Shown here piece after piece: positions 8,602 to 63,889 of a stretch of DNA of 64,000 nt. Positions within the stretch are counted from its first letter, which is position 1. The number at the start of each line of letters is the position of its first letter. The stretch is taken from the NCBI GenBank assembly GCA_964574655.1, contig CAZNOH010000003.1, positions 58,149 through 122,148 on the forward strand, read 5' to 3'. This DNA comes from an uncultured Candidatus Saccharibacteria bacterium (GTDB lineage Bacteria > Patescibacteriota > JABMPQ01 > JAQVVF01). A model generated the notes under the pieces. It was not told the DNA's origin and made no database searches. It saw only the letters and a program-made list of their open reading frames with translations. Both the position numbers and the translations under genes were made by a program.

Positions 8602-8738
8602 AAGTTAAAAAATTAAATTGCTAAATTGCTCAATTGTTTCATTGTTAAATTATTAAGACATTAACATTGCTAACAATTTAGCATTTAAAAATTTTGGATT
8701 GCAAAATTTTTAAACAATTTAACATTTTTATAATTTTG

Positions 8739-9749
8739 TTATTTTATTAACGCTCCAGACTTAATTACATGTTCTACCAAAGTCACCGCGTATCCCCACT
8801 CGTTATCATACCATGCCATAACCTTGACCAAATTTCCTCCAACAACTTTTGTAAGCTCTGCATCAACAATGCCAGCATGTACATTACCAATTACATCATG
8901 CGAAACAATTGGATCATTTGAAATCTCTAATAAATCTTTCCATCTGTCTTCTCTGCTTGCCTCTTCCAAAATATTGTTAACTTCTTCAACTGTTGTATCT
9001 CTTTTAGAAATAAAAGTCACATCTGCAATAGAACCGCAAACAACTGGTACGCGAACAGCAATACCATCAAAATTTCCCTCTAAATCTGTTATTGCTTCAG
9101 TCGTTGCTTTTGCCGCACCTGTTGTTGAAGGAACTAAATTTTGCGCTGCTGCTCTTCCTCTTCTCATGTCTTTCAAATCAGCCGGGCCATCAACAATGCT
9201 TTGTGTCGCAGTATAAGCATGAGTCGTATTTAGTAAAGCTTTTTCAATTCCCAATTTATCATTCAAAATTGCCACGACTGATGCAATTGCATTCGTTGTG
9301 CAAGATGCATTGGAAGTAATCACATCATCTTTCATTCTTTCCTCGTTTACTCCTAACAAAACAATCGGCACCCCATTTTTGGAAGGAGCAGAAATTACCA
9401 CTCTTTTTGCGCCAGCATCAATATGCATTTTTGCTTTTTCCTTTTCAGTAAATACGCCAGTACACTCAACAACCACATCAACATTCAATTGCTTCCATGG
9501 CAATAATTTAGGATCTTTTTCTTGGGTAAATTTTACTTTCTTTCCTTCTACAACTAAATTACCATCAGCGACTTCAACCTTCTTGTCATATTTTCCATAA
9601 ACAGTGTCGTTCTTTAAAAGATAAGCTAAATTTTCTAGATCGCCTAAATCATTAATTCCTACAATCTCTATTTCATCCTGGCGTTCAAACGCAATTTGAA
9701 AAAACTGTCGGCCGATTCGACCGAAACCATTGATTGCGACTTTTGTCAT
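8739..9749 (-). CDS. gap: Glyceraldehyde-3-phosphate dehydrogenase
   Basis: NGFGRIGR NAD-binding motif, active-site SNASCTTNA, full-length 336 aa. Confidence 0.9.
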   Translation of the reverse strand: MTKVAINGFGRIGRQFFQIAFERQDEIEIVGINDLGDLENLAYLLKNDTVYGKYDKKVEVADGNLVVEGKKVKFTQEKDPKLLPWKQLNVDVVVECTGVFTEKEKAKMHIDAGAKRVVISAPSKNGVPIVLLGVNEERMKDDVITSNASCTTNAIASVVAILNDKLGIEKALLNTTHAYTATQSIVDGPADLKDMRRGRAAAQNLVPSTTGAAKATTEAITDLEGNFDGIAVRVPVVCGSIADVTFISKRDTTVEEVNNILEEASREDRWKDLLEISNDPIVSHDVIGNVHAGIVDAELTKVVGGNLVKVMAWYDNEWGYAVTLVEHVIKSGALIK

Positions 9750-27138: not shown

Positions 27139-27164
27139 TCGCACCTGCCTGCCGGCAGGCAGGA
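27139..27164. repeat. GC-rich perfect palindrome CACCTGCCTGCCGGCAGGCAGG, copy 1
   Basis: Same palindrome recurs at 46951-46976. Directly downstream of gdh, so it may act as a terminator. Confidence 0.5.
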
Positions 27165-46342: not shown

Positions 46343-46861
46343 ATGCTAACTTTTACTCTCCATCCTGAAGAAAAATTAGTAATGCTTATTAGAAAGCACA
46401 AAATTTATTATCTAAAACATCTTCTTGTTTTAATATTTCTTTTCAGCTTACCAATCTTAGGCTACATTGCCCTAGCCTCTTTTTTTGAAAATTTATTTAA
46501 TCCTACTATCAGTACTTTATATATAATTTTGGGTTCAATATATTATCTTACTGCCCTCTTTTTTTCACTCCTCAGTTGGATGAATTATTATCTTGATGTC
46601 TGGCTCATAACAAATGAAAGAATAATCGAATACGAACAAAAAAGCCCTTTTCATCGAGAGACTTCCGAATTAATGTTAGAATCAATCGAAGATGTTTCTG
46701 TCAGAATAGAAGGCATATTTCCTTCATTAATCAAATCCGGAAATGTCTATGTTCAAACAGCTGGCCAAGCAGAAAGATTCATTTTTGTTGATGCGCCAAA
46801 TCCAGAGGTAATAAAAGAAACAATAATCAAACTCACTCATCAATCAATTCATCAAAAATAA
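46343..46861 (+). CDS. Membrane-anchored bacterial PH-domain protein (bPH_2/YdbS-like)
   Basis: Two N-terminal TM helices followed by YYLDVWLITNERIIEYEQKS...GNVYVQTAG, typical of DUF304/bPH_2. Confidence 0.5.
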   Translation: MLTFTLHPEEKLVMLIRKHKIYYLKHLLVLIFLFSLPILGYIALASFFENLFNPTISTLYIILGSIYYLTALFFSLLSWMNYYLDVWLITNERIIEYEQKSPFHRETSELMLESIEDVSVRIEGIFPSLIKSGNVYVQTAGQAERFIFVDAPNPEVIKETIIKLTHQSIHQK

Positions 46862-46950
46862 TTTACGCATAAATAAAATAAGCCTTGAAAATATTCAAGG
46901 CTTTTGTTATATTTATATGCAAAATTGACATTGTCATTCCGAAGCCTCAA

Positions 46951-46976
46951 CCGCCTGCCTACCGGCAGGCAGGTGT
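46951..46976. repeat. GC-rich palindrome CGCCTGCCTACCGGCAGGCAGGTG, copy 2
   Basis: Near-identical to 27139-27164. Lies ~125 bp left of the GC-rich island. Confidence 0.5.
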
Positions 46977-47099
46977 CTAATCAATTTCAAATTATAAATT
47001 ATAAAATTAGTTATTAAAAATTGATTAGTAATTAGATATTAGTAATTTTTAGCCATAAAAAAAGACTCCGGTCAACACGACACGAAGTCTAAAACAAAG

Positions 47100-48055
47100 A
47101 ACAAATTTATTTGGGAATTTTAAGAATTGGAGGTAGGCAGAATTGCAGATTGCAGGTAGGTCTTCTAGAAGACGACCGGCACGAACCCATTGGGGTTGTG
47201 CCACTCCGGTCGTTCGCCGATCGCGAACCCGAACGGGTCCTCGAATCGACGATTCTCTTCGTCCTCGATCTCGGGTGCCTTCATAACACAACTGGCCTCA
47301 CGCTTCCCGTTGATGAGCCTGGACCATCCGGACTTGCTCACGGAGCATCGCCGACCCACGCAGTGCTTGCCGCCCTTCACCTCGATCCCCATCTCCAGCA
47401 TGAACTGGATCTGAGTCTCGAAGGTGCTACAACCGTTGTTGTTCCCGTCCTCTCTGTCGCTCTCGCCACCACAGTCCTCCAGCCCCTCTGTCTCCACCTC
47501 ATCTCCCTCCTCTCCCTCGTCGTCCCAGCCACCGATCCAGCAGAACTGCTTGACCGGCTCGTTCTCACGCGACTTCTGGAGCTCGTCCTCCGCCGCCATC
47601 CAACGATCGATCTCCTCCTCCCACTTCTCGAACGTGGAGTCATCGACATCCGAGACCGCACCACGCAACTGCACCTCACGCTCGAGCTCCTTCCGTCGAT
47701 CCTGCTTGATCTGCCACGACGCCTGATAGTTCCGGCTTTTTCCATGTCCACCGATCAGCCGACCCCCACACTTGAGCCTCAAGCTCGAGTACGGAGTACC
47801 GTCGCCATTGTCGAAGCGATGCTTCCCTGTCCCCTCGATCGGCTCACCCCGCACCGGATCCTTCCTCCACTGCGCCACTGCCTTCTTCTTCTCCCTCTCC
47901 TGCTTCTCCCGCTGTTGCCGATAAGAGTCTTCGGTGCTATATTCACTGTCTGCGGACATCTCTCTTTCCCTCCGACCCATCAAAGCTCTGTGCTTGTGGG
48001 CATTTCTCGCCTTTTCCCTAGCGAGTCCCAAGGTTTTCGTACCCAAATATAGATA
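47100..48055. other. Sharply bounded GC-rich island of foreign composition
   Basis: Base composition switches abruptly from AT-rich to strongly GC-rich and back. Long ORFs on both strands, as expected for high-GC DNA. Confidence 0.7.
47165..48046 (-). CDS. High-GC, charged hypothetical protein of foreign (eukaryote- or high-GC-organism-like) origin; function unknown
   Basis: Only frame with protein-like composition (E/D/K/R-rich, G/C at third codon positions). The other island ORFs look like antisense artefacts. No recognisable domain. Confidence 0.35.
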   Translation of the reverse strand: MGTKTLGLAREKARNAHKHRALMGRREREMSADSEYSTEDSYRQQREKQEREKKKAVAQWRKDPVRGEPIEGTGKHRFDNGDGTPYSSLRLKCGGRLIGGHGKSRNYQASWQIKQDRRKELEREVQLRGAVSDVDDSTFEKWEEEIDRWMAAEDELQKSRENEPVKQFCWIGGWDDEGEEGDEVETEGLEDCGGESDREDGNNNGCSTFETQIQFMLEMGIEVKGGKHCVGRRCSVSKSGWSRLINGKREASCVMKAPEIEDEENRRFEDPFGFAIGERPEWHNPNGFVPVVF

Positions 48056-48322
48056 GAACTATCACAAAATATAGCATATTATTGTAGCATTACTAACTAA
48101 TAATGTCAAGACAAAAAACAAACCATCGTTTTTACCTTATTCAAGCCAAAAATATTAGTAATTAAGATATGGAAGATGTCTTGTTCTTCAATCTTGCAAA
48201 CCACTCACTAATTTAGTAAATTTATTATTTTACAAAAATTTAAAAAATTGCTATTATGACTTAATCTATTTTTACCTGCTCCTTGAAAACAAGGAGAGAT
48301 TGTCAAGACAGGAGGGAGAGAA

Positions 48323-49348
48323 ATGCAACTGCCGTTAAACCAAATCGATTTACTTAATACTTTTTCTCCTGAAGAACAACAATTTTTCCAACGTTTTTTT
48401 GTTCGCGATGGACATAGCATACACTTTGCTCCGAATGCATCGATCATTCAAAAAGGTGAAGAACACAATACCCACCTCTATGTTATTGTCTCTGGAACTG
48501 TTCTTGTCAATGTCGCTCGCCGGCGCATCACTCTGGAAACTGGCCGCTGTTTTGGCGAAATCAACTTCTTTGCAAAAAGCGGAAGAACTGCTACTATCAA
48601 TGCCGGACCTTCCGGAGCAATTGTTCTGGTCATCCCGAGAAAACTGTTCGATATCTACATGCTCAATCGTCCTGCTACCGCTCAAGTCGTCATCGAAAAT
48701 CTCGACAGCTTGATTGCAGAAAGACTTGCTCAGATCACCCAATTCTTGAGAAACGAACAAGAAAAACTCAATCAACTCCTCCCAGCAGATGAAGCTAATC
48801 TCCAAAGCAAGGCTTTTATTGGCCAGCTTTCTCAATCACTGCTCAAAGAAACTGTCACATTGTTGGCTGGACTCACTTCTGAAGAAATTGAACAGTTGAA
48901 TCTAGCCTTCAAAATCAAGAGATTCAAACCAAACCAACAATTCATTTTTGAAGGCGAAAGATCCAAAGAACTTTTGCATATTGTTTCCGGAACAGCAATC
49001 GTTCAAGATGTTGTCCGTTTGAATGTCGGCCAAAGTCTTGGCGATATTGCCTTTATTACCGATCTTCCCCGTACTGCCAATGTCTTTGCCGGACCTGTTG
49101 AACTAGAAGTTCGAGTTTTCACTCCTGAAACATTCAAAGAATTTGCCAGTTTCCTGCCATCAACAGCTGGAAAGATCAGACTCAACCTTGCTGAAATTCT
49201 AGCCACCCGCCTCCGTGCCACCCTCGAAATTATTGAAGGCTATCAAGAAAGAATCCATGAAACTGAAGAACAAGAAGAAGAAGAACCTCGCACTTTCACC
49301 GGTCGCCTCTTGCGCACCCTCACCAAGCCAATCAAATTTAATCGTTAG
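48323..49348 (+). CDS. Protein with two tandem cyclic-nucleotide-binding (CAP/PKA-R-type) domains and no obvious effector domain
   Basis: Two CNB cores (RCFGEINFFAKSGRTATINAGPSGAIVLVI and GQSLGDIAFITDLPRTANVFAGPVELEV). GGAGGGAGAG RBS. Confidence 0.7.
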   Translation: MQLPLNQIDLLNTFSPEEQQFFQRFFVRDGHSIHFAPNASIIQKGEEHNTHLYVIVSGTVLVNVARRRITLETGRCFGEINFFAKSGRTATINAGPSGAIVLVIPRKLFDIYMLNRPATAQVVIENLDSLIAERLAQITQFLRNEQEKLNQLLPADEANLQSKAFIGQLSQSLLKETVTLLAGLTSEEIEQLNLAFKIKRFKPNQQFIFEGERSKELLHIVSGTAIVQDVVRLNVGQSLGDIAFITDLPRTANVFAGPVELEVRVFTPETFKEFASFLPSTAGKIRLNLAEILATRLRATLEIIEGYQERIHETEEQEEEEPRTFTGRLLRTLTKPIKFNR

Positions 49349-62453: not shown

Positions 62454-62927
62454 TCAGGAAATCGCAGAATTAATTCTGTGATAGAGATACCTAAAACGCA
62501 GAGGCAGATGACTTCTTTTTTGATCTTCCACAAACTGCTTTTTTGCTTCCAAAATAAATCCAGCCCAGCATATAATACTTGGCACATTCAAAAGCCTAAT
62601 CCAATCCATAAGTTCGCTAACAGAAATTCCTACCTTTCGTCTGTCACAAGAAATGTTACGCAAGCCATACCCAATTCCTCTAGCATTATCATTCACACCA
62701 GCAAAATAAACATTTTTCAAATTTTGCGTATCTCGTATAATGCCAAAGCCAATCATTCCGCATGACGAATCCACAGCCTCTGTCCATTCAACAACCAAGA
62801 TAGTTCCAGAGCTTACAATTTCAGTAACCACATCATCTACCAACAATCTCTCCAAAAATTCACGAATTGTCATGTTATACAGACAATTCCTCACCTGTTT
62901 TTCGTTACCGGAAAACATCGTTGCCAT
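62454..62927 (-). CDS. Hypothetical protein (start trimmed to ATG preceded by AAAAGGAGGAGAG)
   Basis: ORF with strong SD before internal MATMFSGNE. No motif. Confidence 0.4.
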   Translation of the reverse strand: MATMFSGNEKQVRNCLYNMTIREFLERLLVDDVVTEIVSSGTILVVEWTEAVDSSCGMIGFGIIRDTQNLKNVYFAGVNDNARGIGYGLRNISCDRRKVGISVSELMDWIRLLNVPSIICWAGFILEAKKQFVEDQKRSHLPLRFRYLYHRINSAIS

Positions 62928-63063
62928 CGTCTCTCCTCCTTTTTTCTGCAGCAAAAATTTTTCAAAGAACATTGTCATAGATTAACTAATTTTTACCAAA
63001 AAGTCAACAATCATTTTCAAAAAAGAATTAAAATAAAAAAAACTAGATCAAATTCAATCTAGT

Positions 63064-63420
63064 TTACGAAATAATTCTGAGGTAAAGATCAGCTACCTCC
63101 TTCAAACGCCTGACAACTTCATCATGAGTGATGCTATTTAATGCCATCTCTCTTGCAACTGTCTCCTCGCTCACAATGTCTCCATCGCTGTCAACTTCAT
63201 CTTGAGGATCCTTAATATGGCAAGTGAAAACCAATCTTGTCCCATTTCTCTTTATCCGATAGTTGCGATCACTTTTGCGAAAAATGACTATCGAACCATT
63301 CCTCGTGATCGAAAAAACAAGATCATCGTTCAACACATTTCTCAAAAACTCCAAGTTGCCATAAGCAAAATTCGCTCTTGCAATTTTGTCTCTCATTTCT
63401 TCAAGGTACGAGTTTGCCAT
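63064..63420 (-). CDS. Hypothetical protein (start trimmed to MANSYLEE preceded by AAAGGAGGAAATA)
   Basis: ORF, strong SD, followed by terminator aaactagat...atctagttt. Weak similarity to the next ORF. Confidence 0.4.
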   Translation of the reverse strand: MANSYLEEMRDKIARANFAYGNLEFLRNVLNDDLVFSITRNGSIVIFRKSDRNYRIKRNGTRLVFTCHIKDPQDEVDSDGDIVSEETVAREMALNSITHDEVVRRLKEVADLYLRIIS

Positions 63421-63526
63421 TATTTCCTCCTTTTGCAACCAGTCTAACTATATTCTAGCTGACCAAAAAAGCTAAAACAATAGCTTTCAACAAAAAAAAC
63501 AAGGCCAAAACCTTGTAAAAAGAACT

Positions 63527-63889
63527 TTACTTTGAAAGATGCTCAAAAATAACTTCAACTGCCTTCAAAATATTTGCTTCACATTTTTCTGTCCACCTTA
63601 CCACATCAGCGATGCTAACCTTTTGTTTACCTCGCTGCTGATCATCATTGTCCTGAACAAACAAGTCAAAGTAAATTTTTCCCTTCTCCTCATAGCAAAC
63701 TACAATTAATCTTTTCAACCCATAAAAAAAGCTATCAATATCAACCGAACAATCAACAATGTATGGAGCCCCCTTGAATCTTGCGATCAGAATTTCATCT
63801 TCCTGAACAAGCCTCAAAAATGCCTGCCAAGACATATCCTTCACAAATTCAAGGACTTCTTCTTTCGTGTTTGAAAACAAAATCGACAT
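63527..63889 (-). CDS. Hypothetical protein, possible paralog of 63064..63420
   Basis: AAAGGAGGCAGCG-ATG. Similar size and pattern (GxRLVFTCHIKD vs GKIYFDLFVQD; VVRRLKEVADLYL vs VVRWTEKCEANILKAVEVIFEHL). Terminator caaggccaaaaccttg downstream. Confidence 0.4.
   Translation of the reverse strand: MSILFSNTKEEVLEFVKDMSWQAFLRLVQEDEILIARFKGAPYIVDCSVDIDSFFYGLKRLIVVCYEEKGKIYFDLFVQDNDDQQRGKQKVSIADVVRWTEKCEANILKAVEVIFEHLSK

Follow-up and report, generated by a model that had tools for sequence, protein, structure and literature searches.

A GC-rich gene set in conserved, native regulatory DNA at a hypervariable site of AT-rich Patescibacteria

Compositionally atypical orphan genes at variable sites are a known kind of object in bacterial genomes, and several described systems bear on how such a gene may be read. 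Lawrence and Ochman reportedly set out amelioration as a framework for horizontally acquired genes of atypical composition, and Lassalle and colleagues are said to have put forward, in 2015, the hypothesis of GC-biased gene conversion in recombining bacterial genes. Polymorphic surface, toxin-immunity and defence/anti-defence cassettes make up a third class, of conflict or contingency loci, while the bldA/TTA system of Streptomyces is a case of rare-codon control of expression. Here we describe a GC-rich island, and the single gene within it, in a stretch of 64,000 nucleotides (hereafter the window) from an uncultured Candidatus Saccharibacteria bacterium (contig CAZNOH010000003.1, positions 58,149 to 122,148), a locus that resembles each of these systems in some respects and departs from each in others. 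What is unusual is an extreme GC-richness that is confined to an open reading frame (ORF), is shared by several divergent alleles, and lies inside conserved, native regulatory DNA. We consider, with a probability of roughly 0.55, that the island represents a resident hypervariable gene that is kept GC-rich by a local bias.

The composition of the window changes abruptly at the island. Measured in 200-bp windows, GC rises from ~0.31-0.34 to 0.52-0.62 between ~47100 and ~48000 and then returns to 0.26-0.32, and a two-change-point maximum-likelihood fit places the bounds of this segment, to which no strand is assigned, at 47129-48043, with GC of 0.589 inside vs 0.286 outside and a log-likelihood gain of 106. 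Across the 64 kb the 300-bp GC has a mean of 0.334 (standard deviation 0.06), and the island is the sole stretch at or above 0.5. A first-pass annotation of the window had described a sharply delimited GC-rich island at this place, and these measurements bear it out. The same annotation had listed a chimeric assembly or contamination among its options, for which the sharpness of the boundaries is the sole point in favour. Against this, a Logan contig of 2,122 bp from SRR13723394, made by an independent assembler, is identical (100%) to window positions 46521-48642 and spans both junctions, and that assembly encodes the identical protein; at NCBI the gene is located on a contig of 161,998 bp. 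No k-mers of 15, 21 or 31 bases at the two junctions are repeated in the window, so that a de Bruijn mis-join is not expected, and the island edges fall on functional elements of one transcription unit. Moreover, the same design, a GC-rich ORF in AT-rich DNA, is seen again for three other divergent alleles in seven further assemblies from other samples, among them L004, L007, L010, L098, L099 and L100 (L-numbers denote homologous contigs or loci, and P-numbers family or query proteins). The island is genuine and not an assembly error, and we attach next to no credence to a chimera or a contaminant fragment.

As had been proposed, the island holds one plausible gene on the minus strand. The ORF at 47165-48046 is present, with GC of 0.59, 0.43 and 0.76 at codon positions one, two and three; its start at TTG 48046 did not hold up, since the distance from the first leader hairpin (described below) to the ATG is 70-76 nt across family members, with differences that are not multiples of three, which indicates that the in-frame stretch up to the TTG is non-coding. 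The gene starts instead with the ATG at 47959-47957, and the 87 nt from there up to 48046 form part of a non-coding leader. The coding sequence at 47165-47959 (minus strand) encodes an acidic protein of 264 amino acids, identical to P0001, and is delineated by the ORF itself, its codon periodicity, its homologues and the ratio of nonsynonymous (dN) to synonymous (dS) divergence. Between the L010 and L004 copies of the gene dS is 0.54 and dN 0.13 (dN/dS 0.24), which marks it, on sequence comparison, as a real protein-coding gene under purifying selection. The antisense ORF at 47111-48052 is fully open in the codon-for-codon complementary frame, because the sense strand lacks TTA, CTA and TCA codons; antisense dual coding was rejected, as that frame is broken in the AT-richer homologues.

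The codon usage of the gene is completely unlike that of its host, as first noted. Its overall GC is ~0.6 and its GC at third codon positions (GC3) is 0.77, or 0.76 for the longer ORF, vs 0.22-0.30 in the host genes around the island. GAG is used 35 times and GAA 6, AAG 19 times and AAA 2, CAG 11 times and CAA once, and isoleucine is encoded by ATC in 10 cases and by ATT or ATA in none; expressed per thousand codons, CGG stands at 26.5 vs 1.4 in the host and GAG at 129 vs 10. By analogy only, a gene built almost wholly of codons that are rare in its host recalls bldA/TTA control, and translation of the island gene could conceivably depend on the supply of particular tRNAs; the only tRNA gene in the window is a tRNA-Glu(UUC). 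The case is the reverse of that in Streptomyces, with GC-rich codons set against an AT-rich host, and all codons are affected rather than one.

The regulatory DNA around this gene has a different character. A sigma-70-type promoter at 48081-48109 (minus strand), with 11 of 12 consensus matches plus the TG extension, sits in AT-rich DNA immediately upstream of the island and comprises a -35 box TTGACA (48109-48104), a 17-nt spacer and an extended -10 element TG-n-TACAAT ending at 48081. The TTGACA and -10 boxes align with the cassette promoters of L009/L005, L008 and L002, and that of L010 was read directly from its sequence. A family-specific non-coding 5' leader of ~115 nt, recognised from alignments of homologous loci, follows at 47960-48074 (minus strand), with its start at 48074 placed from the position of the -10 box. 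It carries hairpin 1 (48025-48006), hairpin 2 (48000-47976) and a conserved GGAGGG Shine-Dalgarno sequence (47973-47968) that is separated by 8 nt from the ATG, and the GC-rich island starts within it, at ~48043. The two hairpins have 13 predicted pairs, two of them with compensatory changes among six sequences, too few for a statistical test. An nhmmer profile of the leader found exactly one copy per locus, each time upstream of a family gene, and Rfam models gave no match, whether at gathering scores or with E relaxed to 1, in the island, its leader or homologous loci. We consider the leader a candidate cis-regulatory RNA.

Downstream of the coding sequence lies a conserved, pyrimidine-rich 3' untranslated region (3'UTR) at 47091-47164 (minus strand), which aligns with those of L004 and L007 and has 81% identity to that of L010. 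From the distal leader the island thus runs through the ORF and ~36 nt into this 3'UTR, down to 47129. The unit closes with an intrinsic terminator at 47056-47090 (minus strand), a hairpin at 47090-47063 followed by seven U residues at 47062-47056, as judged from its fold and from the hairpin and T-run kept in L004 and L007; in L010 both were read from the sequence. Between the window and L010, identity is 0.75 in the leader and 0.81 in the 3'UTR vs 0.55 in the ORF, so that the regulatory DNA of the cassette is conserved, and it is not GC-enriched. The 3'UTR contains an anti-Shine-Dalgarno-like ACCUCC in the window, with ACCUCG instead in L007 and L010, and it is a matter of speculation that base pairing might join this element to the leader around its purine-rich GGAGGG. 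Relatives also carry tandem runs of an 8-nt unit (~CGTCGGAG or CGTGGGAG, 6-10 copies) between the preceding terminator and the cassette promoter, at 9715-9775 in L010, at ~8650-8740 and ~9770-9850 in L009, and in L008 and L002; such runs are absent from the window's cassette.

The search for a donor or contaminant homologue, which the first-pass annotation had envisaged with BLAST, returned relatives of a different kind. Exhaustive HMMER searching of 1.84 billion representative proteins gave six homologues with 30-45% identity, all in the same Patescibacteria clade and in AT-rich contexts only, and a scan of GTDB representative genomes showed that L010, 'Patescibacteria group bacterium STF1_73', carries the family gene. 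A word-indexed search of 5.8 billion clusters yielded only the protein itself and P0008. No family member was found among IMG/VR viral contigs, INPHARED phages and PLSDB plasmids, nor in a further pattern scan of genomes and viral contigs; two scans of JGI metagenome contigs with low-complexity patterns, which say little, showed none among the matches listed, and a DNA scan of viral contigs gave 87 chance matches with the Shine-Dalgarno block, none with a family protein or leader, and none with the terminator motif. Members share the protein motifs DPVRGxPVxGTGKH, RLKCGxRLIG and DDSTFxEWExEIDR and an acidic tract, together with QIQxMLxxGLxVKGG and/or EDPFGxxxGERxxWHNPxGFVPV, and their C-terminal modules are shuffled among members.

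Wherever a contig carries flanking genes (L002, L005, L009, L010 and L098), the syntenic site is shared. The gene order runs VanW, RuvB, bPH_2, (QueA), one or more family genes with a few small unknown genes, (a gene for cyclic nucleotide monophosphate (cNMP) binding), Wzy_C and PMT_2. The family gene stands between bPH_2/QueA and Wzy_C/PMT_2 in L009, L005 and L010; L098 shows the QueA-bPH_2-RuvB-VanW side only and L002 the Wzy_C side, and L007 (987 bp) and L008 (1,437 bp) are too short for flanking genes and are tied to the clade by the shared leader, the 3'UTR or a cassette of a second type. These genomes are closely related to that of the window, with protein identities of 93% for RuvB, 86-89% for PMT_2 and 77-78% for VanW.

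These relatives bear directly on the proposal that the island arrived recently from a eukaryote (e.g. a fungus) or an actinobacterium, the donors that its codon usage and amino-acid composition had been taken to suggest. The high GC3 would fit such a transfer, as would a charged, low-complexity, eukaryote-looking protein whose sub-threshold Pfam matches (Pal1 and SDE2, E = 0.06) are all to eukaryotic families. No homologue of the gene was found outside the Patescibacteria clade, however, and relatives whose flanking genes have diverged to dS 0.8-1.2 hold it at the same site, with the native promoter, leader and terminator conserved. The codons, too, look more like the strand asymmetry of the host than like such donors: arginine is encoded by CGG at a frequency of 0.59 and by CGC at 0.05, GGC is not dominant, and synonymous sites carry a strong, host-like strand asymmetry, a judgement made against general knowledge of donor usage and not against donor codon tables. 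Such a choice of arginine codons and such a ratio of G to C at 4-fold degenerate sites would seem unlike typical actinobacterial or fungal usage. A recent transfer from so distant a source is therefore highly improbable.

GC-richness is heritable in one sub-family of alleles and extends no further than the ORF and the transcribed bases next to it. Four GC-rich alleles, from eight assemblies, lie at GC3 0.75-0.81 with a mutual identity of just 43-78%. They are the window allele (gene GC ~0.60, GC3 0.77, surrounding GC ~0.29), one allele found in the four assemblies L004, L098, L099 and L100 (0.603, 0.77 and 0.32-0.33), the L010 allele (~0.60, 0.78 and ~0.33) and the L007 allele (0.635 and 0.81, with a surrounding GC of 0.41 over ~200 flanking bases only). 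More moderate alleles occur in L005/L009 and L008 (gene GC 0.43-0.46, GC3 0.37-0.46, surroundings 0.31-0.41) and in L002 (0.51, 0.42 and 0.37), where the family gene is near host equilibrium, as the genome's own genes have a 4-fold GC of 0.39. Third-position A is avoided throughout the family, at 0.05-0.09 in GC-rich and 0.12-0.20 in moderate alleles vs 0.37 in host genes. The moderate alleles keep host-like pyrimidine-ending codons (GAT 0.86, ATT 0.71) and prefer G among purine-ending codons (AAG 0.76 and CAG 0.64 vs ~0.1 in the host).

The 4-fold sites also carry a record of strand. The ratio of G to C there is 1.9-3.1 in host genes on the strand of the family gene and ~0.2 on the other strand, and in GC-rich alleles it is 1.7-4.3 (pooled 2.5), with a G fraction (G4) of 0.43-0.63. 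In ordinary GC-rich genomes G4 is roughly equal to C4, with a ratio near 1. Except for their AT/GC balance, the 4-fold sites of the GC-rich alleles look equilibrated to this type of genome. Within the window itself the ratio is 1.87 in 28 minus-strand genes and 0.21 in 11 plus-strand genes, an extreme asymmetry that L009 and L010 also show; most genes lie on the G-rich strand, and GC skew is negative along all 64 kb and never switches, which places the window within one replichore. The next-highest GC3 in the window, 0.36-0.43, belongs to three adjacent ORFs of 120-174 amino acids at 62454-63889 (minus strand), which may be highly expressed genes.

In AT-rich genomes a GC-rich island often turns out to be an RNA gene, and diversity-generating retroelements (DGRs) are common in this radiation, so we weighed whether the segment might chiefly be a structured non-coding RNA or else serve as a DGR target. 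The two leader hairpins with some covariation fit the former, and the avoidance of A together with hypervariability recalls the adenine-directed mutagenesis of the latter. Codon periodicity, dN/dS below 1 and conservation of amino acids across very different nucleotide compositions nevertheless indicate that the ORF is coding, the Rfam searches were negative even at the loosest cutoff, and the folding energy of the ORF mRNA is not consistently below that of synonymous shuffles (z = -1.4, -0.8, -3.3, -0.2 and -0.1), with no excess of G-quadruplexes. For a DGR, the 64 kb contain neither a template-repeat-like copy of 47050-48120 (the best match, of 18 nt, is at chance level) nor a reverse-transcriptase candidate. 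We consider either origin very unlikely.

The rates of change at the locus set it apart from its neighbours. Between the window and L010, dN of the family gene is 0.58 vs 0.04-0.15 in six flanking genes, whose dS is 0.8-1.2, and the family protein has a dN 4-14 times that of its neighbours. Between L004 and L010, the gene of 141 amino acids adjacent to the cassette has dS 0.29 and dN 0.02. Alleles are mosaic, with identities per 60-nt block from 0.38 to 0.95. Synonymous divergence between GC-rich alleles amounts to dS 0.5-1.4, and in pairs of them 24-43% of third positions differ at codons for the same amino acid, and at these codons all GC-rich alleles hold GC3 at 0.72-0.83. Differences from G or C (S) to A or T (W) are similar in number to those from W to S (8-19 vs 8-19), and 7-10 per pair are changes between G and C.

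Could the alleles simply be decaying from a GC-rich ancestor? A two-state S/W model fitted to ~600 flanking 4-fold sites gave (u+v)2t = 1.45 between the window and L010, and a per-lineage decay factor of 0.48, under which even an ancestor with GC3 = 1.0 would have reached 0.62 today; 0.77-0.78 is observed in both lineages. Within this model, neutral vertical decay cannot explain the GC-richness and is excluded.

It is at this point that the likeness to amelioration ends. As in the cases to which that framework is applied, a single gene of atypical composition and codons occupies a variable slot between conserved genes, and the range of GC3 among homologues, with some excess of GC>AT changes, resembles successive stages of the process. 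Unlike in those cases, the regulatory DNA of the island gene is native and conserved, its homologues are known only from the recipient clade, its divergent alleles share an extreme GC3 despite their synonymous divergence and show the strand asymmetry of the host at synonymous sites, and simple decay from a common ancestor is arithmetically excluded.

A different form of import has more to recommend it. The ORF may have been replaced repeatedly, by recombination in the leader and 3'UTR, with copies drawn from GC-rich DNA that has yet to be sampled (in a relative of high GC, an episome or a phage, for example), so that the GC-rich alleles would be recent arrivals that are now decaying and the moderate ones (GC3 0.37-0.46) older arrivals or imports from L002-like relatives. 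Such replacement would account for the exclusion of neutral vertical descent as well, and for the mosaic alleles and the wide spread of GC3 among them, from 0.37 to 0.81. It would also fit the L004 and L010 cassettes, which as a whole have 81-85% nucleotide identity and are more diverged than the adjacent gene at 93%, and the moderate alleles, whose base composition is close to that of the genes of L002, a genome with which its family gene is nearly at equilibrium. On the other side, no homologue in a GC-rich context was found in the 1.84 billion representative proteins, GTDB representative genomes, IMG/VR, INPHARED or PLSDB, and every GC-rich allele is joined to the same leader, 3'UTR and terminator, which are not GC-rich. 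The G/C ratio of ~2.5 at 4-fold sites, with its G4 of 0.43-0.63, is the strand asymmetry of the clade, where to our knowledge an ordinary GC-rich genome would give a value near 1, and the four GC-rich alleles are tightly grouped in GC3 despite dS of 0.5-1.4. We regard replacement from an unsampled pool as the main rival explanation, possible though unlikely; since it is possible, the first-pass reading of the island as horizontally transferred is in part supported, and only in part.

The reading that we favour, a resident gene kept GC-rich in place, takes the island to be the central, transcribed portion of an autonomous cassette that resides in a single clade of AT-rich Patescibacteria. A strong promoter of native type, a structured, family-specific leader whose ribosome-binding site is strong, the 264-amino-acid ORF, the 3'UTR and the terminator make up this cassette, which fills a hypervariable slot between the conserved VanW-RuvB-bPH_2(-QueA) block and the Wzy_C-PMT_2 block. 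Its alleles would have been long resident on the G-rich strand of such genomes, where a local bias in favour of AT-to-GC changes would keep them GC-rich. Frequent recombination among alleles might produce this bias through GC-biased gene conversion, selection might act on the composition of the mRNA or its codons, or the two might combine, and the family-wide avoidance of third-position A points to a component of selection. More specifically, and with something short of even odds, we suggest that synonymous sites have long been held at ~77% GC within a genome of ~30% GC, in this one ORF only, by a local process, either hyper-recombination at the locus with GC-biased gene conversion, or selection that retains an mRNA poor in A and built of rare codons for its regulatory or protective effect.

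GC-biased conversion is the closest described process for the first of these. A recombining, mosaic locus with raised synonymous GC and little effect on strand asymmetry is like what has been hypothesised, as a symmetric AT-to-GC bias would yield raised GC with strand asymmetry little changed. The locus is unlike that hypothesis in the size of the effect (GC3 0.77 vs 0.22), which is far beyond what is reported, and in the UTRs, which are not enriched. Furthermore, the purine axis is shifted more (G over A, ~18-fold odds) than the pyrimidine axis (C over T, ~6-fold), and the moderate alleles keep the G-over-A shift only; this imbalance implies that an extra strand-specific or mRNA-level component would be needed.

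Several points weigh against maintenance in place. Among synonymous changes polarised in the closest pair of alleles, L010 and L004, 17 are GC>AT vs 5 AT>GC, an excess that also counts in favour of import and suggests some net decay more than an equilibrium; the use of GC-rich outgroups biases this count, and the observed ratio is less skewed than the ~11:1 that host mutation bias would give by our arithmetic. Gene conversion would reach the UTRs too, yet they are not GC-enriched, and we know of no documented case of GC-biased conversion of this size in bacteria. For selection, there is no consistent signal from mRNA structure or G-quadruplexes that would point to a specific target. Known alleles number only about eight, and the decay calculation uses a simple model whose 4-fold sites are perhaps not neutral. 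The proposed function, discussed next, has no backing from domains, structure (predicted local distance difference test, pLDDT, 43-52) or expression.

The product, highly charged and without recognised match as first described, contains 57 aspartate or glutamate and 41 lysine or arginine residues among its 264 and has no signal peptide. Nothing above threshold was found for it among Pfam, PHROGs, NCBIfam, PADLOC or PDB sequence profiles, seven family members likewise showed no Pfam, NCBIfam or PHROG domain, and cysteine and histidine residues are not conserved. AlphaFold2 models were uninformative (pLDDT 43 from the single sequence and 52 from a seven-sequence alignment, predicted TM-score at most 0.23), with helices predicted at 10-31, 81-102, 108-132 and 179-189 and disorder in the remainder, and Foldseek gave no match better than E = 2 against PDB and BFVD. 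The homologues are named only 'hypothetical protein' in their sources. With no Pfam, NCBIfam, PHROG, PADLOC or Rfam model matching, the protein family and its leader are undescribed, and literature searches turned up no specific account of the phenomenon or of the habitat from which the related metagenome-assembled genomes (MAGs) come. By these predictions, the product is an acidic, largely helical or disordered protein with mosaic alleles and occasional tandem paralogues. A homing endonuclease or other selfish nuclease was rejected, in that none of the seven members has a LAGLIDADG, GIY-YIG, HNH, His-Cys box or PD-(D/E)xK domain, as was a component of anti-phage defence, PADLOC being negative for P0001, P0003, P0005 and the neighbours in the variable region.

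It is in its organisation that the locus is like conflict and contingency loci, with a fixed site, variable content, copy number and alleles, fast protein evolution, shuffling of C-terminal modules, and its own promoter and terminator for each unit. It is unlike them in having no toxin, immunity, defence or surface domain by Pfam, PADLOC, PHROGs or NCBIfam, no signal peptide, and no partner gene that is conserved beside it. The strong promoter and Shine-Dalgarno sequence, the acidic and disordered product, and the hypervariability, mosaicism and changes in copy number lead us to conjecture, by analogy, that the gene might encode an abundantly expressed protein in a conflict-type or partner-specific interaction.

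The surroundings of the cassette, to judge from gene content, are a hotspot of gene gain and loss. The slot holds two tandem family members and QueA but no cNMP gene in L009, and one family member and the cNMP gene, without QueA, in the window. In L009, L010 and L098 the queuosine-synthesis gene QueA separates bPH_2 from the cassette; it is missing from that place in the window (46862-47055), and L098 has an extra PDDEXK_3 gene between RuvB and VanW. A shorter member, P0006 (178 amino acids), has the N-terminal motifs only and a different conserved leader; members of its type are located at 10001-10537 in L009 and ~1143-1436 in L008, and as they follow the main member in tandem, there is room in the slot for an array of cassettes. 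Beyond the island in the window, a divergently transcribed gene at 48323-49348 (plus strand) has two cNMP-binding domains, which confirms the tandem cNMP-binding protein annotated there, and lacks a recognisable output domain; Pycsar effector models match it in their cNMP-binding part alone. The gene is mildly GC-enriched (GC 0.43, GC3 0.37), has 76% amino-acid identity in L010, and is absent from L009.

Repeats near the island were considered as well. A transposable element, a miniature inverted-repeat transposable element and an integron cassette were all rejected, with neither terminal inverted repeats nor a transposase present. The sole flanking direct repeat is the 12-nt ATATTAGTAATT at 47036 and 48152, an instance of a window-wide motif, ATTAGTAAT. 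The palindromic 9-mer ATTAnTAAT, mostly in the form ATTAGTAAT, occurs 26 times in the window vs 5.9 expected from shuffles, and three copies flank the cassette (47024, 47038 and 48154), two of which form the ATATTAGTAATT repeat; no exact match to ATTAGTAAT was found within ~1 kb of the family genes in L009, L010 and L004. With the motif enriched throughout the window and unmatched near the cassette in relatives, ATATTAGTAATT as a target-site duplication and ATTAnTAAT as a cassette operator were both rejected, and the 9-mer may be a methylation or regulator site, or plain oligomer bias. The GC-rich palindrome that had been annotated at 46951-46976, on the left flank of the island, is a real hairpin at 46954-46973 (fold z = -3.4) but not part of the island, as a second intergenic copy of the palindrome CCTGCC(T)(A/G)CCGGCAGGCAGG lies at 27144-27163; the pattern has four overlapping matches vs 0.01 expected, and the related loci yielded none. 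It resembles a REP-like repeated hairpin and is unrelated to the island.

For the curation of MAGs, in which such regions may be trimmed, the locus demonstrates that an island with abrupt compositional edges can have causes other than contamination or a recent transfer from afar. What may surprise the specialist is the persistence and the sharpness of the anomaly, although we infer its mechanism only. If the GC-richness is maintained in place, the gene would be a compact natural experiment on how genome-wide AT mutation pressure can be overridden in bacteria. It would then also stand out as a remarkably clean and extreme instance of one gene escaping the mutation bias of its genome, and would add a new protein family and its own leader RNA to those of the Candidate Phyla Radiation. 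Biased gene conversion vs selection as the source of bacterial GC has long been debated, and this locus offers a concrete test bed, in which population metagenomics of one 0.8-kb gene could test the two. For these bacteria themselves, the locus defines an undescribed family and a candidate cis-regulatory leader at a hypervariable site beside envelope-glycosylation genes, where determinants of interaction with partners or phages might be expected.

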